A stretch of DNA of 64,000 nucleotides from an uncultured Planctomycetales bacterium. GTDB lineage: Bacteria > Planctomycetota > SBBH01. Positions 4,342 through 58,265 of this stretch are shown here, one piece after another; positions within the stretch are counted from its first letter, which is position 1, and each line of letters begins with the position of its first letter. The stretch is taken from assembly GCA_964455625.1 (NCBI GenBank), contig CAYVXZ010000005.1, positions 9,632 through 73,631 of the forward strand. The letters run 5' to 3'. The notes under the pieces were generated by a model that saw only the letters and a program-made list of their open reading frames with translations, had not been told where the DNA came from and searched no databases. A program made the translations under genes and the position numbers.

Positions 4342-7300
4342 GTGCACTCCGGCCGCCATTCGGGGCAGGGTTTCGCCCTCATCCTCGCGAGCGGCCTCCT
4401 GATGCTGATCCTCTTGAGCGCCTCGTCGCTTCTCGCGGTCGCCAGACAGGCGCTCACCCGCTCCGGGCACGCGACGGACCGGACACAGGCGGCCTTGACC
4501 GCGGCGAGCGGCATGGCATACGCCAGTATCCGCCTTCAGCAGGACCCCTATCCGAAGTATCTCGACACGCCGACCACACGCCCCGACACCTGGCATGCCC
4601 GCGAGCCGTTCAATACCCCCCTGGACCGGATGCTCAACGTTTCGTACGCCAGGGGGGAGCCCTGGAAGGACACGATCATTCTCGCCTCGGACGGCCACGA
4701 CAACGACGGGGACGGACTGAAGGACGAACCGGGGGAGGGGAACGGCCTCTTCACTCCCGGCGAGCGATATCAGGACCTGGACGGCGACGGACGCTACACC
4801 TCCTGGAGCGGGAGGTTGCGCGCCGGCGCCAGGACATCCGGCAATCGCTTCTCCCTGTCGATCGGGTCCCAGGACGGGAAGATCCCCGTCAATGGGGGTT
4901 ACCTGGACGATCTGGATCGCCAGCCCTACCCTTTCATCTTCGGCGGGAGCTGGGGCGTCCCCGATCACCGGGACCCCGCGGCCAGCCCCTATCACAAGGG
5001 GCTGGTCCATGTTCTCAACAACCTGGGCGCCGTAACCCGACCGGGCGGTGCCGGCACGCGGCGCCGGGATTACCGGTCGGGAATCCCCCTTGGGAGCGGC
5101 CACACCTTCGAGTTTTCATGGCTCGGCGAGGATCTCATCGCGGGCCGGCCGCCGGGAGGATATCGCTCGCTCGCGCAGATCCGGCAAACGCTTGCAGGCC
5201 TCGGGTATGCCCCGGCAGAGTGCGACCTGTTCCTTCCTTTCCTGGATGTCGGCCCCTACACCGGACCGATCGAGAGCGGCCGCGTTTCATACCGGAGTTC
5301 CGCCCCTTGGCCTTTCCCCGGCGCGGAAGGGGGCAATCCGGACGACTTCCCCTTTTCCCCTCCGATCGTCCTGTCGACCGCCCCGCGGGAGGTCTTGGCC
5401 TCCCTTTGGCGGTACCTGGCGAGTTCGCAGGACCTGCCCCCCGTCGCCAGCTCGCCGGCGGTGCCCCTGCAGCGCGTCTACGGCGAACCGGCCGGCGACA
5501 TGGCCACGGCCTCGAGATCCGGCGGCACCCCGATCCGGTTCCGCGCGGACGACTATTACGCCTACCACTTCATGATCTTCCCGGACGAATCGGAACTCCT
5601 GGCCGATACGGCCGCCTCGCTCCGCACCGGAGGTTCCGTATCATGGCAGGAGCTTTACAGCGCCATCCTCCAGAAGATCCCGACCCTGTTCTCTGTCGAT
5701 TACAACAATCTTGGAGGGGCCTCTTCTCTCTGCCCGGTCTACCAGCGCGCCTGGTTGCATGCGAAGGCGGATCTCGCCTTCCGGGCCCTGGCCCTGGACG
5801 CCCCCCCGATGGCCGGCCATTTTCACGGCATCGCGACCTGGGCTGGCTGGGGGCTCGACCGCGACCCCTCGACCAGCCCAGTCGAACAAGGGTCCGGCGT
5901 CGGCCTCGACTGGATCTACCAGGGGCCGATCCCCGCCAGCGAGACGTCCCCGCTGCCAAGCCGACCCTACGATGACGAGTACTGGTCCCTCACCAGCAGG
6001 CGCATCAAGCCGCAGGGAATCACGACCGCGCCCCCCTTGAGATTCCAGATCGAGTGCGCCGGGTCCGCAGGGCGGTCCAGGTACCGTGCGAACGGAAGTT
6101 TTCGGGCGGCCGATCCCCTCTATTTCGCCAGCCAGGAGGATTTCGAGATCCTGCGGCAAAACGTCTTCCTGGACCGGATCGGCGGCATCTCGACAGTCCT
6201 GGACGATCCGCCTCCTCCGGACCGCCGCGTCCGGATGTCGGACGGTGGACGGATCTACCCGCACCTGATCTCCCTCCCGAGAACGAACAGGCGCTCCACG
6301 TTCGCTCCCGGATCGGCGCCGTTTTTTCCGGCGGAGGGATACTCGCGCCTCTACGGCGCATTGACCCTCGCGCCCCGGGAAATCGGCCGGCGCGGCGCCC
6401 AACTGTACTGGACCTTTCCGGAGGATTTCGACGGCGTGCAGGACGCCCCGGGCACGGACGATTGGCACGAAGCGGACCCTGCCTATTCCCATCCCCCCTC
6501 CGACCCCATGGAGATTTACGAGAACGCGACCGATTTCTGGCCGGAGTTCCACCAGTACCGGAATCCCTCCCACACGGACGGAATGTTAAGCACTCTCCAC
6601 CCCTTTCAATGTCCGGGAATGAACGCCCCTTCCGGCACTCCCCTTCTGGCCTTCTCGGCCGATTTCTGGATCAACCTGTCCTACCCCTATCATGACAATC
6701 GCGCTGTTTTCCTGGTCTACAACGCGCAAAGGATAAGCGAGGGACACTGGAATCAGCATTTCATCAAGCTTTACGTCTCACGAGGCGATCCGTCCCAACC
6801 CGGAAAGCGCCCGTATGACGCCACGTTCCGGTTGAGCGTGGACGCCAAGGATCTCATGGGAATCCCCCGCGCCACGGCATCGCCCGCCTGGTTGATCCGG
6901 TCCCCCGGTCCAGCGTCCCCGCATACGCCCGGAATCTTCCACGTCGCCGTGACGGTCGCGAAGGATCCCCTGCTGGATGAAATGACCTACCGTCTCTACG
7001 TCAACGGCAGCAAATTCGCGGCTGACGGGTCCGAGATGAAACACCCGCACCTGCACCTGATCGCCGTCAAGGACGGTGAAAGCATGACTCTTTCCTACGG
7101 CGACGAGCTTCGCCTCTTCGAGACGGCCCTTCCCTCCGGGGAACCGGGCAGCATCTATTCAGCAGGCCGGTTCGTCCCCAGCGGCGCCTACAAATCCCCG
7201 CTGTATGTCTTTCACGAACCGGCCTCCTTCGGAAAGAGCCAATGGCTGGGGCTCATCCCCCCCGGCTTCGTCGACGTCTCGGGACAGCCTGTCGATCCAT

Positions 7301-7554
7301 TCCGCATCCTCGTCGAGGCGTACGGCACCGCGCCGGGCGACCTCGCCCATCCGAACCTGATCTGGCAAAGGACACTCGGGCCGTCCGGCACGGTCGACGA
7401 TCTGCCCCCGAACCCCGTCAAGTCGTTTCGCTACACGATCGAAATCGACTGCAACGACGTCGTCGGCGTCCTGGATGACTCGCCGGTTTTCGAATCGATC
7501 TGGTTCACGCTGCGGCGCCGCGGGCGGGCGCCTGTCTGGTCGGAGTGGGAATAG
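4342..7554 (+). CDS. giant (~1070 aa) pseudopilin-like protein, paralog 1 (GspK/PilX-like N-terminus, DxDxDG loops, LamG-like C-terminus)
   Basis: Start taken as the in-frame GTG at 4342, which has a GGGG RBS-like run upstream and yields VHSGRHSGQGFALILASGLLMLILLSASSLLAV (prepilin/PilX_N-like hydrophobic helix). Shares NPS[FY]ARGEPW, DGDGRYTxWSGRLR, PVNGG, GRPxGGYRS and 'LSTAPREVLASLW' (LNxAP, HhH/SAM-like) motifs with the proteins at 36890 and 40254. The C-terminus FHVAVTVAK...YRLYVNGSKF resembles a LamG/ConA-like domain. Confidence 0.6.
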   Translation: MHSGRHSGQGFALILASGLLMLILLSASSLLAVARQALTRSGHATDRTQAALTAASGMAYASIRLQQDPYPKYLDTPTTRPDTWHAREPFNTPLDRMLNVSYARGEPWKDTIILASDGHDNDGDGLKDEPGEGNGLFTPGERYQDLDGDGRYTSWSGRLRAGARTSGNRFSLSIGSQDGKIPVNGGYLDDLDRQPYPFIFGGSWGVPDHRDPAASPYHKGLVHVLNNLGAVTRPGGAGTRRRDYRSGIPLGSGHTFEFSWLGEDLIAGRPPGGYRSLAQIRQTLAGLGYAPAECDLFLPFLDVGPYTGPIESGRVSYRSSAPWPFPGAEGGNPDDFPFSPPIVLSTAPREVLASLWRYLASSQDLPPVASSPAVPLQRVYGEPAGDMATASRSGGTPIRFRADDYYAYHFMIFPDESELLADTAASLRTGGSVSWQELYSAILQKIPTLFSVDYNNLGGASSLCPVYQRAWLHAKADLAFRALALDAPPMAGHFHGIATWAGWGLDRDPSTSPVEQGSGVGLDWIYQGPIPASETSPLPSRPYDDEYWSLTSRRIKPQGITTAPPLRFQIECAGSAGRSRYRANGSFRAADPLYFASQEDFEILRQNVFLDRIGGISTVLDDPPPPDRRVRMSDGGRIYPHLISLPRTNRRSTFAPGSAPFFPAEGYSRLYGALTLAPREIGRRGAQLYWTFPEDFDGVQDAPGTDDWHEADPAYSHPPSDPMEIYENATDFWPEFHQYRNPSHTDGMLSTLHPFQCPGMNAPSGTPLLAFSADFWINLSYPYHDNRAVFLVYNAQRISEGHWNQHFIKLYVSRGDPSQPGKRPYDATFRLSVDAKDLMGIPRATASPAWLIRSPGPASPHTPGIFHVAVTVAKDPLLDEMTYRLYVNGSKFAADGSEMKHPHLHLIAVKDGESMTLSYGDELRLFETALPSGEPGSIYSAGRFVPSGAYKSPLYVFHEPASFGKSQWLGLIPPGFVDVSGQPVDPFRILVEAYGTAPGDLAHPNLIWQRTLGPSGTVDDLPPNPVKSFRYTIEIDCNDVVGVLDDSPVFESIWFTLRRRGRAPVWSEWE

Positions 7555-28091: not shown

Positions 28092-28283
28092 CGCGCCCCG
28101 CGGCGGGAGCGTTTTCGGGGGCCTGATGGCGCCGGGCCGGTCAGGAGGTGCAAGGCCCGGCGGCATCGGAGCGACGAGGCGGCACGGATGCCGCCGAGGA
28201 GCGTCCCCCGACAAACGCGACCGCCGGAAGGGCAAGCGAGCGAGCGTCCCCGGCGCACGCGACCGGCGGTAGGGGCCGCAGAA
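28092..28283 (+). repeat. intergenic structured repeat element, copy 1 (family of 4)
   Basis: Conserved core GGGGGCCTGATGGnGCCGGGCCGGTCAGGAGGTGCAAGGCCCGGCGnCATCGGAGCGACGAGGCGGCACGGATGCCGCCGAGGAGCGTCCCCCGACAAAnGCGACCGCCGGAAGGGCAAGCGAGCG is shared with copies at 49904, 58266 and (partial) 62170. Confidence 0.8.
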
Positions 28284-32738: not shown

Positions 32739-32747
32739 GCGCCCGCC

Positions 32748-33365
32748 CTACTTGTTCTTCCGGTGCTTGATCTTCTCGCGCGCCTTCTCGCCGGCGCGGT
32801 CGTCCTTGTGCTCCTTGTGGAACTTCCTCTCGCGGTCGAGCTGCTCCTTCCCCTCGCGGCGCGTCAGGGAGCCGTCGCCGTCGGTGTCGGCCCGGTCGAA
32901 CCGCTTCCCCCCGAAAAGCCGCTCCTCGAGCGGCGTCGCCTCCGCCTTCGCCTCGGTGCGTGTCAGGCCTCCGTTCCCGTCGGCGTCCGCCCGGTCGAAC
33001 CGCTCCTCGCGGTAGCCGTCCTCGTCGGTGTACCCCTTCTTCCAGCGCTCCACCCCCTCGCGGCGGGCGTCGCCGGCCCGATGCCGGTGCTTCCGGCACA
33101 TCTCGTGGAAGCGGTGCCGCTTGATGCGACCGTTCTCGTCGGAAAACCGCTTCCACCAGGCGCGATCCGCCTCGGAGCCATCCGTCAGGCCCGCGGCGGC
33201 CGCCTCGTCAAAGGTGAGCTCTCCGTCGCGGTCGGCGTCCGTCTGGACGAACGTCTCCTCGTCCCTTGCTTCGAGCGATTCCACCTCCTCGGAACGCACC
33301 ACACTGCCGGCCAGAAAAGCCCCCGCTGCCAGCATCCATCTCCCCATCTTCCATCCGTTGCTCAT
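32748..33365 (-). CDS. secreted EF-hand calcium-binding protein, paralog A
   Basis: Start ATG at 33365 (MSNGWKMGRWMLAAGAFLAGSVV signal peptide; AAAGGA RBS). Three canonical EF loops: DADRDGELTFDE, DADGNGGLTRTE, DTDGDGSLTRRE. The track start at 33434 is a TTG lying inside the promoter. Confidence 0.8.
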   Translation of the reverse strand: MSNGWKMGRWMLAAGAFLAGSVVRSEEVESLEARDEETFVQTDADRDGELTFDEAAAAGLTDGSEADRAWWKRFSDENGRIKRHRFHEMCRKHRHRAGDARREGVERWKKGYTDEDGYREERFDRADADGNGGLTRTEAKAEATPLEERLFGGKRFDRADTDGDGSLTRREGKEQLDRERKFHKEHKDDRAGEKAREKIKHRKNK

Positions 33366-33418
33366 GACCCGTCCTTTCTGGCATGTATGCCCTTGTTTCC
33401 CCACGACGGGAATATCAA

Positions 33419-33434
33419 GCATATTCCGTGCCAA
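33419..33434 (-). promoter_or_regulatory. sigma-54 (-24/-12) promoter upstream of EF-hand gene A
   Basis: Minus strand reads TTGGCACGGAATATGC, i.e. TGGCACG-N4-ATGC against consensus TGGCACG-N4-TTGCW; about 54 nt upstream of the start codon. Confidence 0.6.
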
Positions 33435-33651: not shown

Positions 33652-34386
33652 CTATTTACCCGGCTCGCGGAGAGCCCCTATGCCATTCGCCGCGATCTCG
33701 CGGACGTTCCAGTCGGGATCCTCCAAGACAGCCTGAAGCCGATCCACCAGGAAGACCCGGAATGTCGGGTCATGTCCCTGCCGCGCGATGCTGATGAGCA
33801 CCGCCACGGCAGCCGAGCGGAGTTCCGGATCGGAATCTTCCAGGACCGGCACCAGCCGCTTCCCTTCCTCGATACGGTTCAGGATTCCGAATCCCCGGAT
33901 GGCATCCTTCCGGAATCCCGTACACGGATCGTCCAGAAACATCCCGAGCACCTCGCCGCCGGGCTCCGGCCAGCGCCCCCGCGCGGCACGGGCGAAGGCC
34001 TGAAGCGATCCGGGCCCCAACCCGGCGAACAACGCGTCCACCACTCGCGTCCATCCCGAGTCCTCCGGAGCAAGCGCAAGCGACCGGAGGCGCAGGGACG
34101 CCATGCGCATGTGGTGCCGCAAGCGGTCGCACAGGTTCCGGACCTCCGGATCCGGATCGTCCCCGGGAAGGAGCCGCGCGATCTCCGGATGGCGATTGCC
34201 CCAGTCGCACAGGCGATCGAAGGCCGTCTGGCGCGTTTGCCAGGAATCAGCCGACAACGCTCCCACTTGGGCCTTCACCGCATCGTCATGCGGAGGGGCC
34301 GGCTCGGCGATGGCGGTGAATCCCGCGAGAAAGGCTGCCGGGACGGAAAGCCGGCGGCGGCACCCGGGCCCCACTATCAGGCGCAT
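33652..34386 (-). CDS. secreted HEAT-repeat protein
   Basis: 244 aa; signal peptide; PEIARLLPGDDPDPEVRNLCDRLR, LEDSDPELRSAAVAVL, LEDPDWNVREIAANGIG are HEAT/PBS-type repeats. Confidence 0.6.
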   Translation of the reverse strand: MRLIVGPGCRRRLSVPAAFLAGFTAIAEPAPPHDDAVKAQVGALSADSWQTRQTAFDRLCDWGNRHPEIARLLPGDDPDPEVRNLCDRLRHHMRMASLRLRSLALAPEDSGWTRVVDALFAGLGPGSLQAFARAARGRWPEPGGEVLGMFLDDPCTGFRKDAIRGFGILNRIEEGKRLVPVLEDSDPELRSAAVAVLISIARQGHDPTFRVFLVDRLQAVLEDPDWNVREIAANGIGALREPGK

Positions 34387-34461: not shown

Positions 34462-36774
34462 ATGAATTATTTATGTATTATTATTGATTCATTCATTAGA
34501 ATCCCGGCCAGAGTGCCCCGCCATCCGGCCGTCACGACGTTCCTGACATCGGAATCGGATCTCCTCACCATTCTGGAGGGGAGCCCGGAACCGCTCGACC
34601 CGGTTCTGCAAGCGACGCTCGCCATCCGCCGGGCGCTCGCCGGGCTTGTCCCCGCCGAGCGGGCGAACGCGTTGGCCGCCGGGCTGGCCGAGCCGGACCA
34701 GGATCCGGAGTTGCGCCTCATCCTGCTCGCCACTTGGGCAACCCTCTCCGGCACCCGCGAGCGTCACGATGAGATGCGAGCCATCCTGCGACAGGCCCAG
34801 GGGCTCGTCGGCCGGGAAACGCCTCCCGAGCTGCGCGTCATGGTCATGCTCTGCGAGGGGTACTATCTTTCCCTGCGCGGAGACCGGCGGCGGCGCGAAA
34901 CGCTCCTCAAGCAGGCGCTGGGAACCCTGACCCGGGCCTCTCCGTGGTATCCGCGCGTCGCCTGGGAATGGGCGGTGGTCTTGGCCCAGCAAGGACGCGC
35001 GAACGAGGCGGAACCCGAGATACGGTTTCTTGATGCCAAGGAAAGCGAGTCCTTCCCGCAGGGGCGACTCGCCCTCGTGAGGTTGTTCGACGCGGTCGAG
35101 TCCGGGCGATGGCGCCAGGCCCGGGTGATGATCGAGCGAATCGACCGCGACCGCCGCACCCTCCGCCCCTGGCAGGCGCTCCTGCGGATCGCCGAACAGT
35201 ACCGGGCGCTGGCGGGCCTGGCGGATCCGAGAGGAGGCGCCCCTACCGAACCGTTCGCGCGCGAGGAGGAGGATCTTCTGCTCGTGACGCGCCATCTCCT
35301 TGCCGGACGGGCGCAGCTCGCCTTGCGCGCGGCCCTGGAGCGCCATGCGCGCTTTCCGCTCCGGTCGATGGAGGCCGGCTTCACCGGCTGGGACATGATC
35401 CGGGCGGAGCTCGCCTGCGGAAACGGGGAATCGGCCCGCCGGCTGGTTGCCGCGCGCCGAAAGCGCGGAAGCCCCCACTGGCTGGACGGGTTCTTCCTGG
35501 CCCGCGCCGAGCGCCTGGCGGGAAAGTCACGGGGGGTGGCCCGGTTGCGCGAAGCCCGCCGGGAGGCCGCCCGCCTCGGCGCCGACGGACGGTTCGAACT
35601 CGAGCTTCGACTCGCCACCGAGATCCCCCCCGGAGATCCGTTCCTTGCTGGCGTGCACCTTCAGGAAAGGAGCGTTCGTCCTGTCGGGACATCCGCTGTC
35701 GATGTCTGCGACTCCGTCATGGATCCGTTGGTCGGGACCGATCCGGAAATCGTTCGCGTCCGGGAGGTGGTCCGCCGGCTCGCTCCGCTGAAGGTGACAG
35801 TCCTGGTGACCGGCGAAACCGGAACCGGAAAGGAGCTTGTCGCGCGCGCCCTGCACGAGGCGGGGCCACGGCGGGCAAGACCTTTTGTCGCTGTCAACTG
35901 CGGTGCGATCGCGGAGGCGCTCCTCGAGTCTGAGCTTTTCGGCCACGAGAGAGGGGCGTTCACGGGAGCCGAACGGGCTCATCGAGGACTTTTCACCGCG
36001 GCGACCGGCGGGACCCTGTTCCTGGACGAAATCGGCGAGGTCTCCCCGCGCCTGCAGGCCGCGCTCCTGCGGGTCCTCGAGAATGGCGAGGTGCGTCCCG
36101 TCGGGTCGGCCGGCGCAGAGCGGATCGACTGCCGCGTCGTCGCGGCGACGAATGCCGACCTCGACCGGCTCGTCGACAGGGGCCTCTTCCGGAAGGACCT
36201 CCTCTATCGTCTGCGGCGTCTGGAGATCGCGCTCCCTCCGTTGCGGGACCGCCCGGCGGACATCCTGCCGCTGGCGCTTCACTTCCTGAACCAGGACCGC
36301 CCCACCGGACGGACCGCGACGATGACGCCGGATCTCGCCGATTGCCTGCGCGCCCATCTCTGGCCGGGAAATGTCCGGGAGCTCAAGAACCGGATCGAGC
36401 GGATGCTGCTCCTGGCCGGCGAGAAGGCGGTCTATACCCGCGAGGACTTCGACCTCGCGCCGCTCTCGCCGCGGGAGCCTGCGCCGGCCGCCAGTGCCGG
36501 CACGCCCGCGGACCCGCGCGACCCGTTGCAGGTTTTCACCGAGGGGCGGTCGACCCTGCGGCGCCGGGAACGACTGAAGGCTCTCTTCCATGAGCACCGG
36601 ATGCTCACCCGGGCAGAGGCGGTCCGCATCCTGGACGTGGCCCCCGGGACCGTCACAACGGACCTCAAGGCGCTGGCCGCGGAAGGGGTGATCGAGAAGG
36701 TGATGCCCCGCCGCGCGCCGCGGACCCATTTTTTCCGGCTTCGCACAAGGCCGTCCGACAGGATTATGAAATGA
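34462..36774 (+). CDS. sigma-54-dependent transcriptional activator (enhancer-binding protein) with ~430-aa non-canonical helical N-terminal domain
   Basis: [57 protein letters not shown]...[25 protein letters not shown]...[27 protein letters not shown] (AAA+ sigma-54 interaction domain with GAFTGA) plus a C-terminal HTH. The first 15 codons are very AT-rich, so the true start may be the downstream GTG near 34509. Confidence 0.85.
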
Positions 36775-36889: not shown

Positions 36890-39800
36890 ATGGCCATGCC
36901 CGCACATACGCTTCCCCGGACCGGTGGCATCGCCCTCATTCTGACCGCCGGCATCATGACCCTGCTCGGCCTCATGGCGGCCCTTTTCACGGGAGGCCTC
37001 CGGCTGACCTCCGAGACAGGCCACCGCCGGACGGATCAAACCCGCTCCGGGCTTGTGAGCGAAAGCGGCCTGTCGTACGCCCGATCGCGTCTCCTCGCCC
37101 GGACTGCCCCAGCGCCCGGCGCGCTTTGTCGCGGAGATGACTGGACGGCGCGTGGCGACGAGATTCCTTCCCTGTCGCCCGGACAGCTCTCGAATCCCTC
37201 CTATGCACGCGGGGAGCCGTGGCCGGATGACGGAGACGGCATCCACAGACCAGGCGAGGAGCGATCAGGCCCTGGCTGGATCGACCTAGATCGGGACGGC
37301 CGCCTCTCCGCCTGGAGCGGCCGCCTCCGGCTGGAAGCCACCCCGTTCGGCGCCCGCTTCGCCCTCCGGATCCGTTCGGACGCAGGGCTCGTTCCGGTCA
37401 ACGCGGGCGAGCTGGGAAATCCCGACGCCGATCACGACTGCGACGGGATCCCGAACCGGCTCGATCCGGAATACCATGCCTGGCTTGCGGTCAATCCGGC
37501 TCCATGGGCCGATCCGGGCGCCGGTATGAACGTTTCCCTCGTGAACCTTCTCGACAGCCTCGGCGCCCTCCTGGACATCTCGGACGCCGCGCCAGAGCCG
37601 TATACACCGGCCCTCGGAAACCGGCCTCCCACGCCGCGCCACGGCGAGATCCTCCTTTCTCGCCTTGGCCGCCGGATCGTCGCGGCGCGCCCACGCGGCG
37701 GCTACACATCGGTGGAGGAACTTCTCCCCGTCCTCGGAGCGGAAGACTACGCCAAGTCCGCCCCTTTCCTGACGGTCGCGGGAGACCGAGCTCCCCGCAA
37801 TGCCGATGTCGTCGCAGGCCACGCCGATACGGTCACCCGGGCAATGCTGGTCCGCGCCGATCAGCCGCTCATCGACCTGAACAGCGCGCCCGAGACAGTG
37901 ATCCATGCAGCCCTCCGGATCGCTGCCGCCGGGGGCCTCTATCACAACGATCCGTCCCATTACAACTGGGCAGAGGATGCCGAGTTCCAGGCGATCGTCA
38001 CCGAATCTTCCTACGTGCGGATCCTGGAAGGCGAGGCAGCCGGAATCGCCGCACTCATCGGGCAGGAGCGCCGCACCGCCCCGATCCGGAGCTGGAAGCG
38101 CCTGCTGGAGATGCTTGCGGCCTTCTCCGACGTCGCCGACGACCCCTTCACGGCCGTCGACGACCGGACCGGCCAGGCGCGAGAAACGCGCCAGCGCCTG
38201 ATCGAAGATCTCGTTCTCGCCTCTTTCAGCGCGGAAATGTTCGTCCCCGACCCGTTCTCGCGGAGCCGGGATACGCTTGAGGTCGAACGCGAAGGGATCC
38301 CGACGGGCGAGGATCTTTTGCGCGCGCGCCAAGTGCCGTCGGCGGCGCTCCTGGCGCAACAGACCGCCCCCTACAACGTCTCGGGACTGATCCCGCCGCC
38401 GGGTACCGCCGCGCAGCTCCACATGCCGGTGAACTATTTCGAACCGCCGCCGCCGGAGCCGGGCCGTCCGACGCCGGCCCACCTGAAGACCCGGCCGAAC
38501 GCCATTTTCGGCCTGGCGGGCGGGCCATGCCGGTACGACATCGAGTCGGAAGGACGTTCCGGGCCGGATCACCGGCAGACCCGGCGTTCGGCGCGGGCTT
38601 CCTGCGGCCTGCCGCTTGCGGCCTGGCGGGCGACCGGGCAGGAGGATTTCGAGATGCAGCGTCCAGCTCCGGGCTCCCCGCGCTTTTTCGAGAGGGGAGA
38701 CCTCCTCTGCGAAGGCTCCATCCCCCCCGTCAGAAACGGTATCCAAAGCCATCCCCGCTTCCCGATTTCCAGCTACACGCCCGAAGCGCTCCTGGCCGAT
38801 TTTCCGGACATGACCGACGATCAGCAGGAAAGGCTCCACGAAGCGCATGCCTGCCCCGTCCTGTGGGGAGACCTGCGGTTCGCGGCCCGTCAAGCGCCGG
38901 TCTCCGAGCTCCTCGAAACGACCCCTCCGTGCGTCTTCGCCCTGCCGTTCAACGAGGATTCCGTCCCGGGTCCCGACAATCTTTACTCACCCGACGACTG
39001 GAAGGACAACTTCGGGGATCCGACCCGCCGCCCGGAGGGGTCCCCCATGGTGCGATGTTACAGCGGCGAAGGCCGCGGGATGGCGATCGGCGGATGGGCC
39101 CGCTTCGGGCCGTGCGGCCTGCGCCTCTTCCCCCTGGCAATGGTGGGCGAAGAAACGGGCGAACCGGAGGACGGCGATTTCTTGTCGTTCCGGTGGGACG
39201 ACGGCTCGGCCCCCTGTCCGCTGACGCGCGGTGACTACCACGACTCGGACGGGTCGACAAACGTCGTCTCGGGGGGCGGGGAGATCCGGAACGCCACGAT
39301 CACATTCTCCTTTCCGGCGCGGGGCGGCGAGACGCCGGTCGCCCAGTACGGGGATACCGAGTTTACCGTCCAGTTCGAATCGCAGCCGGTTGGCGGCGCG
39401 AGCGGCGCTGGCGTCGACGGGGATGAAGGCGGCAAAGGGGGAATGGGCGGGGGAGGAAGCGGAGGCGAGGAAGAGGAAGAAGAGGAGGAAGAGATCGACC
39501 AGGAGGATATCTATTTTTCCTACCTGAAGATCCGCGTCCTGCCGGGGGACATCCTCATGCTCTCGATGCAGGACGGGAGCTCGGCCCCGGCCATGCCGCC
39601 TCCCGTGCCGTTCGCGTCGGGCCGGCGGTGGCGCCACGCGGCGGTAACGATCGACGGCGGGACGGACCCCGACGACGGCATCGCCCATGCGAGCGCCTGG
39701 ATCGACGGCGTCCTCGCGACGACCGCTCCCTTCACGCTGGATACCGGTCGCTTCCCCGCCGACAAGAAGCCGACGAGCGGCGCCCTGCGCCTCAAGATCG

Positions 39801-40267
39801 TCCAGGGTCCCCTCGACGACCTGAAGTTCTTCAACGCCACGATGAGCGCGCAGCAGATCCAGGACGAGGCGACGCGGGCGTTCCTGCGCCACGAGACGTC
39901 CGGGTCGTACCTCTCGGGCCTTCTGACCTTCGACCAAGGCCGCTTTCCCGGAGGCGCGGCGCTCACGGGCGCTTCCTGGAGCGCCTTCGCACCGGCCGCC
40001 TGCCGGGGCCCGACTGCCCCCATGACATTTACCGTGTACGCTTACGGAAATGATCCGACCGCCCCTCCCCTCGGCGAGGCGAACTTCGACTGGGACGGAA
40101 GCCCGGAGGCGCTCCAGCAAGCGGACTTCCGCCTCCCTCCCTGCCGGCATTTCCGGTGGCAGGTCGTCATGCGGTCAGCAAGCCCCGCCGACACGCCGAT
40201 CCTGGAGGAGTTCCGCGTCCACTACGCGCGGCCGGGAGCGTCCTGGACGACCTATGCCGCGGACTGA
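36890..40267 (+). CDS. giant (1125 aa) pseudopilin-like protein, paralog 2
   Basis: MAMPAHTLPRTGGIALILTAGIMTLLGLMAALF (prepilin/PilX_N-like); NPSYARGEPW, DLDRDGRLSAWSGRLR, PVNAGELGNPDADHDCDG, RPRGGYTSVEELL, IDLNSAPETVIHAAL (HhH/SAM-like as in GspK/ComEA); acidic Gly/Glu low-complexity linker; C-terminal WRHAAVTIDGG...AWIDGVL is LamG-like. Confidence 0.65.
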   Translation: MAMPAHTLPRTGGIALILTAGIMTLLGLMAALFTGGLRLTSETGHRRTDQTRSGLVSESGLSYARSRLLARTAPAPGALCRGDDWTARGDEIPSLSPGQLSNPSYARGEPWPDDGDGIHRPGEERSGPGWIDLDRDGRLSAWSGRLRLEATPFGARFALRIRSDAGLVPVNAGELGNPDADHDCDGIPNRLDPEYHAWLAVNPAPWADPGAGMNVSLVNLLDSLGALLDISDAAPEPYTPALGNRPPTPRHGEILLSRLGRRIVAARPRGGYTSVEELLPVLGAEDYAKSAPFLTVAGDRAPRNADVVAGHADTVTRAMLVRADQPLIDLNSAPETVIHAALRIAAAGGLYHNDPSHYNWAEDAEFQAIVTESSYVRILEGEAAGIAALIGQERRTAPIRSWKRLLEMLAAFSDVADDPFTAVDDRTGQARETRQRLIEDLVLASFSAEMFVPDPFSRSRDTLEVEREGIPTGEDLLRARQVPSAALLAQQTAPYNVSGLIPPPGTAAQLHMPVNYFEPPPPEPGRPTPAHLKTRPNAIFGLAGGPCRYDIESEGRSGPDHRQTRRSARASCGLPLAAWRATGQEDFEMQRPAPGSPRFFERGDLLCEGSIPPVRNGIQSHPRFPISSYTPEALLADFPDMTDDQQERLHEAHACPVLWGDLRFAARQAPVSELLETTPPCVFALPFNEDSVPGPDNLYSPDDWKDNFGDPTRRPEGSPMVRCYSGEGRGMAIGGWARFGPCGLRLFPLAMVGEETGEPEDGDFLSFRWDDGSAPCPLTRGDYHDSDGSTNVVSGGGEIRNATITFSFPARGGETPVAQYGDTEFTVQFESQPVGGASGAGVDGDEGGKGGMGGGGSGGEEEEEEEEEIDQEDIYFSYLKIRVLPGDILMLSMQDGSSAPAMPPPVPFASGRRWRHAAVTIDGGTDPDDGIAHASAWIDGVLATTAPFTLDTGRFPADKKPTSGALRLKIVQGPLDDLKFFNATMSAQQIQDEATRAFLRHETSGSYLSGLLTFDQGRFPGGAALTGASWSAFAPAACRGPTAPMTFTVYAYGNDPTAPPLGEANFDWDGSPEALQQADFRLPPCRHFRWQVVMRSASPADTPILEEFRVHYARPGASWTTYAAD

Positions 40268-43200
40268 CCGCGCCCGGACCGGCGTCGTCCTCGCACTGAC
40301 GAGCGGCCTGCTTACGGCTTTGGCGTTCGCTGTCCTCATTTTCACGCAGATCGTGCGGATCTCCGCTACTGTCCTGTCGGCCGCCTCCGGACGCGCGGAC
40401 GGGGAGCTGGCAGCCGAAAGCGGAATGCATTGGGCGGCGGGGCATCTCGCCGAAAAACCCGCCCGTTTCGACATCCCGCGAACAGCGGTCGCCCGTCCCG
40501 ACGACTGGCAGTACCGGGACGGCGCCGAGTATCGCTGGACTCCAGATGGACCTGATCCCCTCCCGGAGGACCTGCAGGAAAGCTTCAACCCCTCCTTCGC
40601 CCGCGGCGAGCCCTGGCATGACGCGGACGGAGACGGGCGTTACTCCGCGGACGAAATCTGGACGGACCTCGACGGCAATGGACGCTACACCGCCTGGAGC
40701 GGCCGCCTGCGGGGTCCGAGACCCCCCTTGGGGCATTCCTTCTCGATCCGGATCGACCCGGGCCCCTCTTCGCGCGTCAATGTCAACGGAGGGGATGTCG
40801 GGAAGCCATGGTCCGCGACCGCTCCGTGGAGGTTCAAAGGACTCCCCGCTGACTCCGGAAACGATCAGCTGGCATGCCACCTGAACCTGTTGGGAGCCTC
40901 TCTCGGGATCAGGGACTACACGATCGCGAACGTGGACAATGCTGCGATCAAGCCGGTGCTCGTCTCGGACCTGGGTGCGGAAATCCTGTCACGCCGACCG
41001 GTCGGCGGGTTCCGGTCACGGAACGACCTGGCGCGCGCCCTGATCGACGGCGGGGCGCTGACGCGCGACCAGTGGAGTCGCCTGTCGCCTCATCTGGCCC
41101 TGCACGAGACCCGGAACACCGCCGGACGGACCTGGCTCGACCTGAACGGCGCCCCGCGCGCCGTCCTGGCCTCGTTCTGGATGCACCGGAGAGGTGGGGC
41201 GACCTCCCCCTGCCTTTCCTATTCGGGTGCGGATCTCCTGATCGGCGGGACGCCGGTCTTGGACCCCTGGACACAGACCAACTGGGGTGCATCGGCCTTC
41301 GTCTTTCCGGAGGAGGCCACGACCATGGCAGACGAGATACACCTCGCCAAGCGTATGTTCGGGATGCTGGAAAGCTATCTCGAGGTCTTCCGGACGCTGT
41401 GGGAATCCCTCCAGGGTCCCGACGGGCATCTTTGTCCGGATGACCCCACGACATCAATCCCGGAGCCGGCGCTCTACGCCACCGAAAAGGCGCGGATCCT
41501 CATGGCCGCCTCCTTCCCGGACGCCGTGACGCAGAACGGATCGAGCGGCGGATCGCAGATCGGTCGCTTGATGGGGGTCCTGTCCTCGGTGGGAAGCTGG
41601 GAGTGGGACCCGGACGACATCCAGGGAAACGATGTCCTGGCCGTCAACCTCAAGACAATCCCTGAAGGAACCCGCATCATCCCTCTGGACGGCGACGGCT
41701 ACCACGAAGCCAGCCCCTATTCCGGCCTGACGGGATTCGCCGCCGTCTGGCCCGACCGGGCGCTCTGGCTGGGGCCGATCCGGGATTTCGAGGTCTCCTG
41801 CCTCGCGCACTCGATTGGCGGGACCCTGGCCGTTCGTTCGGCCGACGTCCGGATCCTCACAGGGATACATCTGAACAGCCAGGAAGATTTCGAGAACCTC
41901 GGCACGATCCGGACCGGGAGCGACCCGAATGCAGGCATCCGCCGCTTCCTGACGGATGGCGTCGAGACGGCGGGGCTTTCCCGCTACGACAGGGTCCAGT
42001 CGCTCCCCGACTTCTCGAAACGCTCGCATTGGCGGGCTGGCATGACGGGGTTCGACATGAAAGTGGGAGCCCTTACGCTTGCCGAGGCGGTACCCGATTT
42101 CCCCGCTTCCCCCGCCCCGACCGCCCAGGCGGTGATGGCCCCCCACGCGGACGGGAACGAGACCCTGGCGGGCAACTGGCTCGACACGACCTACATGGGA
42201 GGACAGGACCATGTCCGTCTCAAGGGGACCTACCCGTTCGCCGACGACGGTCCGGACGCCCTCTTCGCGCACGGGGATCCGTTCGAGATCCAGCCTTCCC
42301 AGATGGCGACCGGCACCAAACCGCTCGACAAATGCGACCCCTGCTGGACCGGCAACATACGGACCTACTTCCTCTCCCTGGACGCCTCGGACGGCATCCC
42401 GGCGCCGCTGCGAAGCGGCCCTCCTCCCTGTCCGGCCTCCAGTCCCCACTCCGACCTCGCCCGGATGTGGCAGTCGGGCGGAATCGAGGCATGGGTGGAT
42501 TTCACCGGCGGGACCGTCTGGGAAGCGAGCGCCGACTTCGACTTCGGGCCCGGCCTTCTCCTTCCGCAGTCGCTGACGCTCTCCCGCGGAGAGACCCAGT
42601 ACTTTCTCGAATGGCGGTACGAGATCCCCGTTGTCTGGGAGGACCTGAACGGATCCCGGGTGGTCGATCCGGGCGACACCTACTGGATCGCTTCCAGCAA
42701 CACCGGCGACAACCGCATCGCCTGGGATATCCCGACCCGCGGCGTCCCGTGGGTCCGTCCGCTTCCGGACCACCTGGTCGTCGAATGGCAGACGCTCCGC
42801 TACGTCCCGAACCGGGGGAACCTGGATGCGCTGGAGATCCGGACGCGTCTCCGGATCGTCCTGAACGGCTCCGTTGTCCACGACGCGGTGCACACGTTCA
42901 ACCAGGACTTGCAGGGAACAGCCCCCTTCGTGCCTATCCTGTCGAGGCGGATCGCGGCCGACGGCCGCTTTGACTCCCAGCTCGCGATCAAGTGCTACGC
43001 CGATCAAGTAGCACTCTATAACGGCTTCGGCGCCGGGGACTTCCGGACAGCAAATCCACGTCCCTGCCGGGACCGATTCGAGCGGCAAGGATGGTACGAA
43101 TCGCCGCTCCACGTCCTTCCGCAAACGATGCGCCCGCTCTGGGCTGCCTGGACCGGCGTTGCCTCCGAGCAGATGCGCGTGTCGGCCCCGCAAGCGATGC

Positions 43201-43460
43201 GGTGCCGGCTGTCCCTCTACGCAGACGCGACGGGAAAATCCGGGCGGACCGATGAGCTCGCGGGGCGCGGCGGCGAGCGGCTCGACGGCCTTCCGGCGCG
43301 CTCGTTCCGGTTCAGGGTCGACTGGGACATCCCGGACGACGACGCACTCCGGGACGCACCGAGCGGTCAGGGAGGAACCGGTGCCTTCGTCAACCCGCCC
43401 GTCTTCGAGGACCTGTGGATCGCCTTGGCCGGACGGCCTCAATGGAACTTCTGGAAGTAA
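40254..43460 (+). CDS. giant (~1068 aa) pseudopilin-like protein, paralog 3 (translationally coupled to paralog 2)
   Basis: Start ATG at 40254 overlaps the paralog-2 stop by 14 nt. MPRTDRARTGVVLALTSGLLTALAFAVLIF; NPSFARGEPW, DADGDGRYSADEIWTDLDGNGRYTAWSGRLRG, VNVNGGDVG, LSRRPVGGFRSRNDLARAL, WLDLNGAPRAVLASFW; C-terminal LRIVLNGSVVHDAV. Confidence 0.65.
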   Translation: MPRTDRARTGVVLALTSGLLTALAFAVLIFTQIVRISATVLSAASGRADGELAAESGMHWAAGHLAEKPARFDIPRTAVARPDDWQYRDGAEYRWTPDGPDPLPEDLQESFNPSFARGEPWHDADGDGRYSADEIWTDLDGNGRYTAWSGRLRGPRPPLGHSFSIRIDPGPSSRVNVNGGDVGKPWSATAPWRFKGLPADSGNDQLACHLNLLGASLGIRDYTIANVDNAAIKPVLVSDLGAEILSRRPVGGFRSRNDLARALIDGGALTRDQWSRLSPHLALHETRNTAGRTWLDLNGAPRAVLASFWMHRRGGATSPCLSYSGADLLIGGTPVLDPWTQTNWGASAFVFPEEATTMADEIHLAKRMFGMLESYLEVFRTLWESLQGPDGHLCPDDPTTSIPEPALYATEKARILMAASFPDAVTQNGSSGGSQIGRLMGVLSSVGSWEWDPDDIQGNDVLAVNLKTIPEGTRIIPLDGDGYHEASPYSGLTGFAAVWPDRALWLGPIRDFEVSCLAHSIGGTLAVRSADVRILTGIHLNSQEDFENLGTIRTGSDPNAGIRRFLTDGVETAGLSRYDRVQSLPDFSKRSHWRAGMTGFDMKVGALTLAEAVPDFPASPAPTAQAVMAPHADGNETLAGNWLDTTYMGGQDHVRLKGTYPFADDGPDALFAHGDPFEIQPSQMATGTKPLDKCDPCWTGNIRTYFLSLDASDGIPAPLRSGPPPCPASSPHSDLARMWQSGGIEAWVDFTGGTVWEASADFDFGPGLLLPQSLTLSRGETQYFLEWRYEIPVVWEDLNGSRVVDPGDTYWIASSNTGDNRIAWDIPTRGVPWVRPLPDHLVVEWQTLRYVPNRGNLDALEIRTRLRIVLNGSVVHDAVHTFNQDLQGTAPFVPILSRRIAADGRFDSQLAIKCYADQVALYNGFGAGDFRTANPRPCRDRFERQGWYESPLHVLPQTMRPLWAAWTGVASEQMRVSAPQAMRCRLSLYADATGKSGRTDELAGRGGERLDGLPARSFRFRVDWDIPDDDALRDAPSGQGGTGAFVNPPVFEDLWIALAGRPQWNFWK

Positions 43461-43513: not shown

Positions 43514-43527
43514 CGTCGCTTCGGGTC

Positions 43528-44112
43528 CTACTTGTTCTTCCGGTGCTTGATCTTCTCGCGCGCCTTCTCGCCGGCGCGGTCGTCCTTGTGCTCCTTGTGG
43601 AACTTCCTCTCGCGGTCGAGCTGCTCCTTCCCCTCGCGGCGCGTCAGGGAGCCGTCGCCGTCGGTGTCGGCCCGGTCGAACCGCTTCCCCCCGAAAAGCC
43701 GCTCCTCGAGCGGCGTCGCCTCCGCCTTCGCCTCGGCGCGGGTCAGGCCGCCGCTCCCGTCGGCGTCGGCCCGCTCGAACCGCTCGCTGTTGCGCTCCGG
43801 GTCCCCGTACGCCTTCTTCCAGCGATCGGTCCCCTGGCGGTGCCTGCGGCACATCTCGTGGAAGAGATGGCGCTTCAGGCGCCCGTTCCCGTCGGAGACC
43901 CGCTTCCACCAGGCCCGGTCGGCCTCGCAGCCGTCGGTGAGGCCGGCCGCGGCCGCCTCCTCGAACGTGATCTCCCCGTCCTTGTCGGCATCGGTCCGGG
44001 CGAACGTCTCCTCGTCCCCGGCGTCGATCGACTCCACCTCTTCGGCCCGGACGCCCCCTCCGGCGAGGCATCCCGCGACCAGGATCCATCCCATCATCTT
44101 CCCGCTTTCCAT
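43528..44112 (-). CDS. EF-hand calcium-binding lipoprotein, paralog B
   Basis: Start ATG at 44112 (MESGKMMGWILVAGC, lipobox-like; AAAGGAAA RBS). Three EF loops: DADKDGEITFEE, DADGSGGLTRAE, DTDGDGSLTRRE. The 3' 213 nt are identical to paralog A. Confidence 0.8.
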   Translation of the reverse strand: MESGKMMGWILVAGCLAGGGVRAEEVESIDAGDEETFARTDADKDGEITFEEAAAAGLTDGCEADRAWWKRVSDGNGRLKRHLFHEMCRRHRQGTDRWKKAYGDPERNSERFERADADGSGGLTRAEAKAEATPLEERLFGGKRFDRADTDGDGSLTRREGKEQLDRERKFHKEHKDDRAGEKAREKIKHRKNK

Positions 44113-44166
44113 GCACGTTTCCTTTCTGGCACGCATGCCGTTATCCCTCACCGGATGAATAGTCAG

Positions 44167-44183
44167 GCATTTCCCGTGCCAAC
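44167..44183 (-). promoter_or_regulatory. sigma-54 (-24/-12) promoter upstream of EF-hand gene B
   Basis: Minus strand reads TTGGCACGGGAAATGC (TGGCACG-N4-ATGC), the same architecture as the promoter of paralog A. Confidence 0.6.
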
Positions 44184-49649: not shown

Positions 49650-49903
49650 AAGACCCTCCGGATGGCGCCGTTGCTCCGCTCATGCGGCCCCTGATGCCGG
49701 AAGCGGGTCGCCGGGGACGTTCCTCGCGGCGTCCTGCCGCTCGTCACTCGGGTTGCGCCGCCGCCCGCGAGGCGCGGGGACGGCTACGGGCCTCCGCATC
49801 CTTGCTCCGGAGCGCGCTCCACACGCCCCGGACGACCGCTCCCGACCGGGGCCGCGCGCGTTCGCATGCGTCCGGCTCTGGATGAACCGAACGAACGCGA
49901 CGG

Positions 49904-50072
49904 CGTGCGCCCCGCGGCGGGAGCCTTTTCGGGGGCCTGATGTCGTCGGGTCGTTCAGGACGTGCTAGACCCGACGATATCGGAGCGACGAGGCGGCACG
50001 GATGCCGCCGAGGAAGCGTCCCCCGACAAAGGCGAACCGCCGGAAGGGGCGCCGAAGCCGAGCAAAGGCACC
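49904..50072 (+). repeat. intergenic structured repeat element, copy 2
   Basis: Same core as 28092..28283. The hairpin arms carry compensatory substitutions (GTCGGGTC...GACCCGAC versus GCCGGGCC...GGCCCGGC). Confidence 0.8.
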
Positions 50073-58156: not shown

Positions 58157-58265
58157 CCCCCTTCGAGAGCATTTTTACCATGGCCGGCCGGAGAGGCCCC
58201 TCTCACCCGCCCGCCTACGGCTCCTGTCGCCGGCCGCCCCCGCAAAGCGAGCGGCCCGGAGGCGG

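Follow-up and report, generated by a model that had tools for sequence, protein, structure and literature searches.

The window, a stretch of 64,000 nucleotides from contig CAYVXZ010000005.1 of the uncultured Planctomycetales bacterium assembly GCA_964455625.1, carries genes for three giant paralogous proteins, referred to here as par1, par2 and par3. The par1 gene (4342..7554, forward strand) starts with a GTG at 4342, as in the NCBI gene call P0261, and encodes a GspK-like modular pilin-type protein of 1070 aa, in which a prepilin-like leader (MHSGRHSGQG, followed by FALIL) precedes a 58-residue N-terminal helix, an acidic loop insertion, an HhH alpha-domain and a C-terminal lectin/LamG-like beta-sandwich. 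The 1125-aa paralog par2 (36890..40267, forward strand) lies downstream of a sigma54-type activator gene and shares about 25-31% identity with par1, the value varying with the alignment. The first 14 nt of par3 (40254..43460, forward strand; 1068 aa) are shared with the end of par2, which makes the two a tandem pair, and a similar tandem pair of par-family genes is found at the related locus L002. The N-termini of the three paralogs read G/FALIL, G/IALIL and G/VVLAL, all lacking Glu5, and the IPR012902 N-methylation motif was not detected in the par family. The base composition of the window is 58-75% GC, and the par proteins contain 7-8% Asp and about 10% Gly.

Directly after a [YF]ARGEPW motif, the translations of all three paralogs contain the clustered Asp/Gly peptides quoted in the original prediction, which had also placed those of par1 accurately at 4690-4830. 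In par1 this anchor (YARGEPW, aa 102-108, 4645..4665, forward strand, as for all loops below) marks the N-terminal edge of the loop insertion, and its G, E and W are invariant in an alignment of 12 sequences (A2) and conserved at 90% or more each in one of 72 sequences (A6). Three sites follow. Site A, DNDGDGLKD(E) (aa 120-129, 4699..4728), is the extra loop of a "long form" and an exact match to Dx[DN]xDGxxD, the PilY1/integrin consensus. Site B, EGNGLFTPGE (aa 132-141, 4735..4764), is a degenerate remnant of a 12-residue EF-type loop, terminates in a near-invariant "PGE" glutamate, and reads D-A-D-G-D-G-x-F/Y-x-P-G-E in the aligned short-form members. Site C, DLDGDGRYTSWS (aa 145-156, 4774-4809), is fused to an SGRLR motif (aa 156-160, 4807-4821). 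Site B of par2, PDDGDGIHRPGE (37223-37258), retains D3, D5, G6 and E12 and is degenerate because position 1 is Pro, and its site C, DLDRDGRLSAWS (37283-37318), again runs into SGRLR, which ends at 37330. A further 12-residue loop private to par2, DHDCDGIPNRLD (37430-37465; D1, D3, D5, G6, N9, D12), lies in a second insertion and was absent from the loops originally listed; comparable extra loops occur at loci L004 (DHDLDGILNQDD) and L002 (DRNGNGLPDHAD). Site B of par3, DADGDGRYSADE (40620..40655), is a complete 12-residue EF-type loop (D1, D3, D5, G6, S9, E12) and is followed by site C, DLDGNGRYTAWS (40665-40700), and by SGRLR up to 40712. When the three paralogs are aligned with one another or with the wider family, the loops fall in homologous columns, and the segment that holds them is 25% acidic (D+E), compared with 12% for the whole protein, and 7% basic.

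An exhaustive HMM search recovered 190 par-family representatives at E<=1e-30, nearly all of 950-1200 aa; the family thus comprises at least 190 clusters at 50% identity. The family becomes visible only by such a search, since the second, alignment-based round of word-indexed homologue searches gave the same 10 proteins as before. A profile scan of genome contigs added one distant locus, in a Planctomycetales MAG, and two metagenome scans gave no usable match. A further candidate locus, L007, was rejected because its match, a motif of 23 residues, fell in an unrelated ORF rich in GC. The family is unannotated, no member having a profile-database match above threshold; Pfam and NCBIfam returned just weak GspK, LamG and "acidic double-disulfide repeat" matches on its members, and a PDB sequence search with the full-length A2 profile gave only a spurious match at E 0.24.

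Conservation of the loops is centred on site C. The original prediction had named a lack of conservation in orthologues as a possible refutation, but the loops are conserved: at this site, next to SGRLR, D.[DN].[DNS]G is preserved in 113/139 representatives (113/146 in another count), with the consensus D-x-D-G-D/N-G-R/K-F/Y-S/T/D-A-W-S in fixed register before SGRLR. Among 146 representatives, D1 is found in 86%, D3 in 79%, D/N5 in 88%, G6 in 85%, S/T/D9 in 87% and S/T12 in 98%, and both SGRLR arginines (positions 14 and 16) are present in all 146; Asp itself occupies position 9 in 23 of them (16%). The upstream loops are variable, being either EF-type with a Glu end, as in par3, or an added Dx[DN]xDGxxD, as in par1: the full 12-residue EF-type loop at site B occurs in 22/101 short-form representatives and the site A motif in 25/32 long-form ones. 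The loop segment is deleted in about 6/139 representatives, some 20 more carry degraded motifs, and in another alignment at least 10 members have no aligned loop segment. Its deletion in some representatives indicates that the loops are dispensable for the fold and not essential to the core function of the family.

The full-length AF2 model, built from 72 sequences, has a pLDDT of 88.1 and a pTM of 0.92, whereas a model of the N-terminal 464 aa built from 12 sequences reached a pLDDT of only 51 and was discarded. In the full-length model, the 58-residue helix is followed by helical HhH elements and beta-strands; residues ~60-160 are predicted to form almost no helix or strand, with a pLDDT of 87-90 up to residue 150, of 87-89 across the loops and of 67 for 151-160, and DSSP assigns no helix longer than three residues within the stretch 60-188. 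The AF2 models carry no placed ions. Further along the chain, Foldseek matched lectin folds (3rsj_A, 6.6e-6; 7oa8, 1.7e-5; the PAPP-A LamG domain, 4.1e-5; legume lectins), and Laminin_G_3 matches par2 at E 4e-4, below the cutoff, and is seen in 2/12 members; a ConA/LamG-like domain is thus predicted by the model to stand C-terminal to the pilin module. The combination of a pilin with a PF13385 lectin is a common and widespread modular-pilin architecture (PMC8179133). Like PilC of S. sanguinis (7OA8; pilin plus PF13385), the par proteins would combine an N-terminal pilin module with one of ConA/LamG type, presumably exposed at the filament tip, but their pilin module is GspK-like and contains an alpha-domain and the acidic loop insertion.

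The relation to GspK is clearest in the N-terminal helix. The NCBIfam GspK model (NF037980) matches the N-terminal 88 residues of par1 at E 3.3e-5 (23.6 bits against a 130-bit cutoff), and PF03934 (T2SSK) matches par2 only, at E 0.08; true GspKs carry both PF21687 and PF03934. When the family profile was aligned by hhalign with a 34-sequence GspK profile, three collinear matches were obtained (Q1-60 with K6-65, E 2.3e-5; Q159-221 with K90-135, E 0.14; Q269-347 with K182-229, E 7e-4), the alignment with a single GspK sequence being insignificant. Foldseek matched chain 9a1f_T of the XcpGHIJK model (probability 0.90, E 1.4e-2), which is probably XcpX, to judge from chain length only. Past the N-terminal helix, the homology is drawn from weak local profile matches and this one Foldseek match. 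The shared framework comprises a helix without Glu5, an "RFSLxIxSxDGKIPVNAG" strand matching GspK "...D..grFNLN", and HhH and "L(N/S)TAPxxVL" elements. Like GspK/XcpX (3CI0, 5VTM), the par family begins in prepilin fashion (Gly at -1, Glu5 lacking) and has a long alpha1, a beta-strand whose end is an N-x-N-type motif, and HhH elements within an alpha-domain; unlike GspK, it is three times larger, has an added lectin-like C-terminal half, and is encoded outside any gsp operon.

The loops lie in a family-specific insertion of ~50-100 residues (typically ~75) between alpha1 and the first beta-strand, which is missing from GspK and occupies the position of the alpha-beta loop of type IV pilins; in the profile alignment, family residues 61-158 stand opposite only about 24 GspK residues (66-89). 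The 34 GspK homologues share a conserved acidic cluster in the alpha-domain (D150/D153/D155/E164/D165 in K-12), which we take to be the crystallographic Ca2+ site of GspK. Read by eye, the family consensus shows no counterpart to this cluster in the stretch Q222-268, so the sites of the two families would be analogous, not homologous. In the parallel that was originally drawn, the statement that GspK binds Ca2+ is correct (XcpX, three sites, Kd 26 uM; PMC6211770), but the par loops are not homologous to the GspK sites.

A likeness to EF-hand-like and PilY1-type sites had also been proposed, and it is borne out for par1 site A, which is a PilY1 consensus match, and for par3 site B, an EF-type loop. 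It does not extend to site C, which, as far as its sequence indicates, shares only the DxDxDG core and would belong neither to the canonical EF loops nor to the PilY1 type. DxDxDG Ca2+ loops are found in EF-hands, integrin FG-GAP, thrombospondin type 3 and dockerin, and this calcium-binding loop class is reportedly the subject of work by Rigden and Galperin in 2004. The par loops resemble the class in their D1-x-D3-x-D5-G6 spacing, hydrophobic or aromatic position 8 and polar position 9, and, like thrombospondin type-3 repeats, follow one another in a stretch devoid of regular secondary structure, but they lack the flanking helices of EF-hands and the Cys pairs of thrombospondin repeats. Position 12 Glu is provided by par3 site B and replaced by Ser/Thr in site C. 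With neither Glu12 nor Asp9 in site C, an extra ligand would have to be supplied from elsewhere; that the near-invariant PGE glutamate supplies it to the putative site is only a guess. On whole par proteins, neither the Pfam EF-hand profile nor those of PilY1 and FG-GAP gave any match at E<=1, and isolated loop peptides scored 9-11 bits with EF-hand_5 (E 0.27-1.3; cutoff 25.9 bits) and no better than E 3.4 with FG-GAP. PS00018, used in the form that we take to be its EF-hand loop expression, has no match in the three paralogs; since the bona fide EF-hand neighbours escape it too, it does not discriminate. The consensus of the C-terminal EF-hand-like site of PilY1/PilC is Dx[DN]xDGxxD (PMC8833165), which occurs within the first 300 aa of 58/151 family representatives and in exact form in neither par2 nor par3. 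PilY1 (P. aeruginosa PilY1, M. xanthus PilY1.1) and the par family have in common a nine-residue acidic loop in a protein linked, presumably so for par, to the type IV filament tip, but the par family has no beta-propeller, its loop lies in a pilin-like module and not between propeller strands, and its site C has Ser/Thr in place of the essential Asp9.

The neighbourhood of the par2-par3 pair includes the EF-hand genes that the original prediction had taken to point to calcium. Immediately upstream of par2 lies a gene for a sigma54-interaction-domain activator with TPR and AAA+ regions (34489..36774, forward strand; Sigma54_activat 1.5e-64, Pfam). EF-hand gene 1 (32748..33434, reverse strand; EF-hand_6 2.9e-10, EF-hand_1 3.6e-9, Pfam) encodes a protein with a signal-peptide-like N-terminus and three EF loops, upstream of and on the same strand as Fe-S/NrfD and molybdopterin-oxidoreductase-like genes (the name for 28386-31130 being taken from the translation only). 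EF-hand gene 2 (43528..44151, reverse strand; EF-hand_1 3.9e-11, Pfam) has a VAGC lipobox-like signal and is convergent with par3, 67 nt past its stop. A repeat of 259 nt at 98% identity (32747-33005 and 43527-43785) shows that the two genes are recent duplicates, which thus count as one observation. Sigma54-like -24/-12 sequences precede both, TGGCACGGAATATGCT (33418-33433, reverse strand) and TGGCACGGGAAATGCC (44166-44181, reverse strand). The annotated neighbours otherwise include glycosyltransferase, Rpe, HEAT-repeat and ABC/MacB transport genes; no T2SS/T4P machinery genes adjoin any par copy in the window, and no gsp genes adjoin the family gene at L001, L002, L003 or L006. The EF-hand genes and the activator are best treated as context, as candidates only for membership in a par system.

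One could dismiss the loops as accidental, or as a by-product of composition in a high-GC proteome rich in Asp and Gly, for which the composition given above would speak, but the data refute such a view. Residue shuffles lead one to expect 0.05-0.12 copies of D.[DN].[DN]G per paralog, and each paralog has two; the EF-hand protein at 32748-33434 (reverse strand) has three, and the 36 other genes tested in the same scan, from which the second EF-hand gene (43528-44151) was left out, have none. These counts, set against the shuffle expectation, exclude a chance origin, and the loops keep a fixed register in more than 110 distant homologues. It is likewise very improbable that the loops are homologues of the known GspK/XcpX sites. 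GspK/XcpX does bind Ca2+ at two to three sites (PMC6211770), and the third XcpX site (D65, D78, E82, counted along 5vtm_X) appears to lie at the end of alpha1, near the start of the insertion, but the loops face only the ~24 GspK residues given above, D.[DN].[DN]G is found in 0/34 GspK homologues, and the acidic cluster of GspK belongs to the alpha-domain and is missing, by eye, from the matching stretch of the family. Less improbable, though still unlikely, is the reading that the loops are metal-free turns, Asx- or Gly-turn networks or charge contacts with SGRLR as a possible partner, whose likeness to Ca2+ sites is compositional convergence. The missing Glu12 and rare Asp9 of site C would fit such turns, as would the invariant arginine pair right after the loop, which could neutralise the carboxylates, the Pfam Ca-motif models that stay below significance and the confident modelling of the segment by AF2 without an ion. 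Against this stands the spacing, which is exactly 1-3-5-6 (D, D, D/N, G); combined with an aromatic residue at 8 and a hydroxyl or acid at 9, it makes up a known Ca2+ loop signature, which is kept at 50%-identity clustering. Moreover, the upstream loops independently match a complete EF-type consensus in par3 and a PilY1-type one in par1, and a segment so rich in acidic and poor in basic residues would be hard to fold without counter-ions.

If Ca2+ is bound, it might act as a regulatory switch that gates filament priming, retraction or adhesion, as proposed for PilY1, with the EF-hand proteins, the sigma54 activator and the giant proteins forming a calcium-responsive module. PilY1 offers a precedent for the control of pilus dynamics by Ca2+ (PMC4471445), the activator, par2 and par3 stand between the two EF-hand genes, which encode signal peptides and are each preceded by a sigma54-like sequence, and an FG-GAP (Ca2+-loop) protein adjoins the L001 homologue. 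We nevertheless regard such a switch as improbable. The EF-hand genes on which the original prediction leaned do exist, in two duplicated copies, but the related loci L001, L002, L003, L004 and L006 have no EF-hand neighbours, and par1 has none within the window, so that the link is specific to this window; being duplicates, the two genes amount to a single observation, and gene 1 is co-oriented with the oxidoreductase-like genes that it precedes. Sigma54-like matches are not enriched either, numbering 14 across the window against 12 expected by chance, and the promoter scan found no good site upstream of par2.

Binding of Ca2+ by the par loops is plausible, and we lean, if only slightly, towards the reading that each protein has two to three true divalent-cation sites, with Ca2+ as the probable ion, in an acidic insertion of a GspK-like minor-pilin module joined to a C-terminal lectin-like module. 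The calcium-dependent function that had been proposed for the giant proteins is an inference. After export and prepilin-type processing, the par protein would meet extracytoplasmic Ca2+, and the ions would cross-link the carboxylates of sites A/B and C, making an otherwise irregular excursion rigid. Ions stiffen segments in a similar manner in thrombospondin type-3 repeats, in the sites of GspG and GspK and in the PilY1 loop. The rigid segment would lie on that side of the head domain through which minor pilins touch their partners in the filament-tip complex, and the lectin-like module may then be shown at the tip as an adhesin; the role of Ca2+ would be structural or assembly-stabilising and not that of a signalling EF-hand. 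A bolder version, which we consider quite improbable, would make the insertion a Ca2+-gated latch of orphan tip adhesins, giant and GspK-like, that form a class as yet uncharacterised, with Ca2+ occupancy deciding docking with minor pilins and filament priming, and wired here to secreted EF-hand proteins and a sigma54 activator as an undescribed calcium-responsive adhesion module of uncultivated bacteria.

Ca2+ sites recur in type IV filament machines, GspG, GspK and PilY1 among them, as elements of control and stability, and the par loops would add one more, which probably evolved independently and belongs to the alpha-beta region of a GspK-like module. A Ca2+ motif alone would not surprise a specialist; its placement in a family-specific insertion is a new variation on a familiar theme. 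If Ca2+ is bound, GEPW...DxDGDGRFSAWSGRLR would serve as a simple recognition signature of the family, point mutants and EDTA sensitivity would offer a handle on the folding and docking of giant modular pilins, and the loops would represent another case of the repeated, possibly convergent, recruitment of DxDxDG loops, in a family that appears to fuse a tip pseudopilin with a lectin-type adhesin.

The three giant GspK-like paralogs lie on the forward strand of the window, whose GC content ranges from 58 to 75%: par1 at 4342-7554 (GTG start; its 1070-aa product is identical to an NCBI gene call), par2 at 36890-40267 and par3 at 40254-43460. Aligned end to end, they share ~25-31% mutual identity, depending on the alignment. 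The acidic Asp/Gly loops of the original prediction are all found in their translations, each immediately past the conserved [YF]ARGEPW motif: DNDGDGLKDE (4699-4728, +) and DLDGDGRYT (4774-4800, +, running on as ...SWSGRLR to 4821) in par1, DLDRDGRLS (from 37283, +) in par2, and DADGDGRYSADE (40620-40655, +) and DLDGNGRYT (from 40665, +) in par3. Each paralog has two matches to D.[DN].[DN]G, versus 0.05-0.12 expected from residue shuffles; the same scan detected three copies in an EF-hand protein of the window and none in the 36 other genes scanned. The loop motifs are real, a compositional artefact is ruled out, and the probability that they arose by chance is negligible. Tandem pairs of family genes are seen both in the window (par2/par3, 36890-43460, with a 14-nt overlap) and at the related locus L002 (1275-7514, encoding 1065-aa and 989-aa proteins), from which the family proteins may work as hetero-pairs.

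A word-indexed homologue search returned only 10 relatives, and an exhaustive profile search, in which 1.84 billion cluster representatives were screened, recovered 504 at E<=1e-10, of which 190 reach E<=1e-30, with nearly all of the top 150 matches being full-length (950-1200 aa). Site C, the loop nearest the invariant S-G-R-L-R anchor, was read as the 11 residues preceding it and follows the pattern D(86%)-x-D(79%)-G(79%)-D/N(88%)-G(85%)-R/K(73%)-F/Y/L-S/T/D(87%)-A-W, then S/T (98%). The loops are conserved in orthologs, D.[DN].[DNS]G being retained in the site C register by 113 of the 139 representatives that carry both anchors. In the short forms (n=101), the upstream loop closes with P-G-E, which is nearly invariant and located three residues ahead of site C, and a complete 12-residue EF-type loop (D1, D3, D5, G6, polar 9, E12) is present in 22 of them. 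The long forms (n=32), par1 among them, display an extra loop, site A, of the type D[ND]DxDGxxD(E) in 25 cases, and their intermediate site B is degraded. Six representatives have lost the loop segment entirely, so that GEPW nearly abuts SGRLR. The stable site C, its variable companions and these deletions suggest that the loops form a conserved but accessory, deletable module. The segment is also strongly acidic, with 25% Asp+Glu and 7% Lys+Arg, versus 12% Asp+Glu in the whole proteins. No loop segment could be aligned to the loop-region profile in P0022, P0090, P0074, P0085, P0152, P0052, P0077, P0045, P0034, P0064 and P0032, representatives which look like natural loop-less variants and possible comparators.

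The EF-hand-like or PilY1-type character originally ascribed to the loops applies to some of them only. The PilY1 consensus is Dx[DN]xDGxxD, and replacement of its Asp9 by Ala abolishes binding (PMC8833165). Site A of par1, DNDGDGLKD, fits this consensus exactly, and site B of par3 is a full 12-residue EF-type loop. The conserved site C, however, has the DxDxDG core only: unlike in EF-hands, its position 12 is Ser/Thr and never Glu, and unlike in PilY1, only 16% of representatives carry Asp at its position 9. In the AF2 model, no flanking EF helices surround the loops, and the Pfam models EF-hand_5 and FG-GAP gave E-values of 0.27-3.4 on the isolated loop peptides. By these motif comparisons, the loops belong to the broad DxDxDG class, outside the EF-hand and PilY1 families; the class reportedly includes EF-hands, integrin FG-GAP, TSP type 3 and dockerin.

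Almost nothing in the family proteins is recognised by Pfam and NCBIfam. The NCBIfam GspK equivalog aligns with the N-terminal ~88 residues at E 3.3e-5, far under its cutoff, and par2 gives weak Pfam matches to T2SSK (E 0.08) and Laminin_G_3 (E 4e-4). In the full-length par1 model that AF2 produced from 72 family sequences (pLDDT 88.1, pTM 0.92), a 58-residue N-terminal helix is followed by a ~100-residue stretch (residues ~60-160) nearly devoid of regular secondary structure; pLDDT stays at 87-90 as far as residue 150 and drops to 67 over 151-160. After ~160, beta-strands interleave with a helical region, and the last ~400 residues are all-beta. In its own C-terminal beta-rich region, par2 contains an insert of low complexity, rich in Gly and with poly-Glu, GGKGGMGGGGSGGEEEEEEEEEIDQED (aa 847-873, 39428-39508), that is absent from par1 and par3. 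The top Foldseek matches of the par1 model in the PDB are ConA/LamG-type lectin folds, including the BoNT receptor-binding domain (6.6e-6) and the S. sanguinis PilC modular pilin 7oa8 (1.7e-5), with further matches to PAPP-A LamG and to legume lectins. Another match, at probability 0.90, is 9a1f_T from the XcpGHIJK pseudopilus model, whose chain T is probably XcpX judging from its length. When the N-terminal 600 columns of the family were compared with a 34-sequence GspK alignment, collinear matches linked residues 1-60 to GspK 6-65 (E 2.3e-5) and 269-347 to 182-229 (E 7e-4), with a weak match between them (159-221 to 90-135, E 0.14). The profiles pair the family 'RFSLxIxSxDGKIPVNAG' with GspK '...D.q.cFNLNaL', and the family HhH plus 'L(S/N)TAPxEVL' with 'G.t...y..L.P.v..lP...INvNT'. 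The N-termini (...G|FALIL, ...G|IALIL, ...G|VVLAL) lack Glu at +5, as in GspK. Taken together, the profile, model, Foldseek and N-terminus results lead us to read the family as modular minor pilins of a GspK-like type onto which a lectin-like module has been grafted; a pilin joined to PF13385 is a common modular-pilin architecture (PMC8179133). Orthology to GspK itself was rejected, as the score is far below cutoff, the proteins are three times longer and the genes lie outside a gsp operon. The par1 gene is flanked by a glycosyltransferase gene and rpe, par2/par3 lie downstream of a sigma54 activator gene, and no gsp genes adjoin family genes at the related loci examined. Among the genes seen around family members, just one belongs to type IV filament machinery: a GAF-MshEN-T2SSE ATPase gene at L006 (19838-21994), separated by 6.6 kb from the family gene there.

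In the collinear alignment, the loop-bearing stretch (family residues 61-158) faces only ~24 GspK residues (66-89), which makes the loops an insertion of ~75 residues that follows alpha1 and precedes the first beta-strand, where type IV pilins have their alpha-beta-loop. GspK has a conserved acidic cluster, D150/D153/D155/E164/D165 (K-12 numbering; 34-sequence alignment), which we take to be its crystallographic Ca2+ site. Its pattern, '..aDyiDvDd.....GaED..Y', lies at the start of the alpha-domain. Inspection by eye showed no acidic cluster in the matching family consensus stretch, and D.[DN].[DN]G occurs in none of the 34 GspK sequences. GspK/XcpX binds Ca2+ with a Kd of 26 uM (ITC) at two 'canonical' sites common to ETEC GspK and at a third (D65, D78, E82) (PMC6211770). 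This third site appears to fall at the end of alpha1, close to the family insertion point (residues counted along the 5vtm_X sequence), and does not belong to the DxDxDG kind. The premise that GspK itself binds Ca2+ is thus true (PMC6211770), yet it does not transfer by homology, since the loops lie in an insertion and the cluster is absent. Descent of the loops from the known GspK sites is very improbable, and they would rather be independent, analogous putative Ca2+ sites.

The two EF-hand genes, 32748-33434(-) and 43528-44151(-), both pass Pfam EF-hand thresholds and encode proteins whose N-termini resemble signal peptides; one of these carries a lipobox-like VAGC motif. Their 3' halves are near-identical (32747-33005 vs 43527-43785, 259 nt, 98%) and their 5' halves diverged (33074-33314 vs 43827-44067, 79%), a pattern pointing to a recent duplication or to gene conversion between the two. 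The block that they enclose, ~10.7 kb long, holds a HEAT-repeat gene, the gene of an activator with a sigma54-interaction domain (34489-36774), par2 and par3, and sigma54-type -24/-12-like sequences are found just upstream of both EF-hand genes (TGGCACGGAATATGCT, 33418-33433(-); TGGCACGGGAAATGCC, 44166-44181(-)). This arrangement would suit a regulatory Ca2+ switch in which the neighbouring EF-hand proteins and sigma54 activator take part. Over the whole window, sigma54-like matches show no enrichment (14 vs 12 expected), and no site of good quality was found upstream of par2. The adjacency to par2/par3 is real but specific to the window: EF-hand neighbours were found neither at L001, L002, L003, L004 and L006 nor beside par1. 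As evidence for a functional link to the family it is weak, and the switch is improbable. A HEAT-repeat gene adjoins a family member, or lies one gene away, at three independent loci (window 33652-34386(-); L001 5413-6567; L006 8621-9793), and the giant GspK-like proteins may have a conserved partner in its product. At L001, a gene for a 430-aa FG-GAP repeat protein with seven DxDxDG-type loops (899-2191), a putative Ca2+-loop protein and not an EF-hand one, lies directly upstream of the homologue P0005.

Other repeats were also observed in the window. A ~140-nt GC-rich repeat in three copies (28095-28235, 49909-50049, 58254-58394; 74-88% identical) has an RNAalifold consensus of 61 pairs, 8 with compensatory changes, without an Rfam or tRNA match; possible identities are a structured ncRNA and a REP/MITE-like element. 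A 76-nt inverted repeat (49735-49810 / 62177-62252, 95% complementary, arms 12.4 kb apart) likewise is not a tRNA and matches nothing in Rfam.

The family carries conserved DxDxDG-type loops within an acidic, confidently modelled insertion without secondary structure, and this insertion belongs to a GspK-like pilin module fused to a lectin-like module. We propose that in the exported protein the loops would bind two to three Ca2+ ions, neutralising and rigidifying the insertion, in a structural or assembly role like that of Ca2+ in GspG, GspK, PilY1 or TSP type-3 repeats. The insertion would flank the head domain, in the region where minor pilins of the tip meet their partners, and the lectin-like half would be displayed as an adhesin. 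Alternatively, the loops could be metal-free turn structures whose charge is neutralised by the invariant SGRLR arginines, a reading that we regard as unlikely. The proposal of structural Ca2+ loops at the flank of a tip-located, lectin-like adhesin is, as a whole, somewhat favoured. The loops themselves have been confirmed, and the interpretation originally attached to them is supported in part. Ca2+-type loops in filament-tip proteins are a known theme, here hosted by an uncharacterised and sizeable family. This family of giant GspK-like modular pilins is a more interesting object than its loops.
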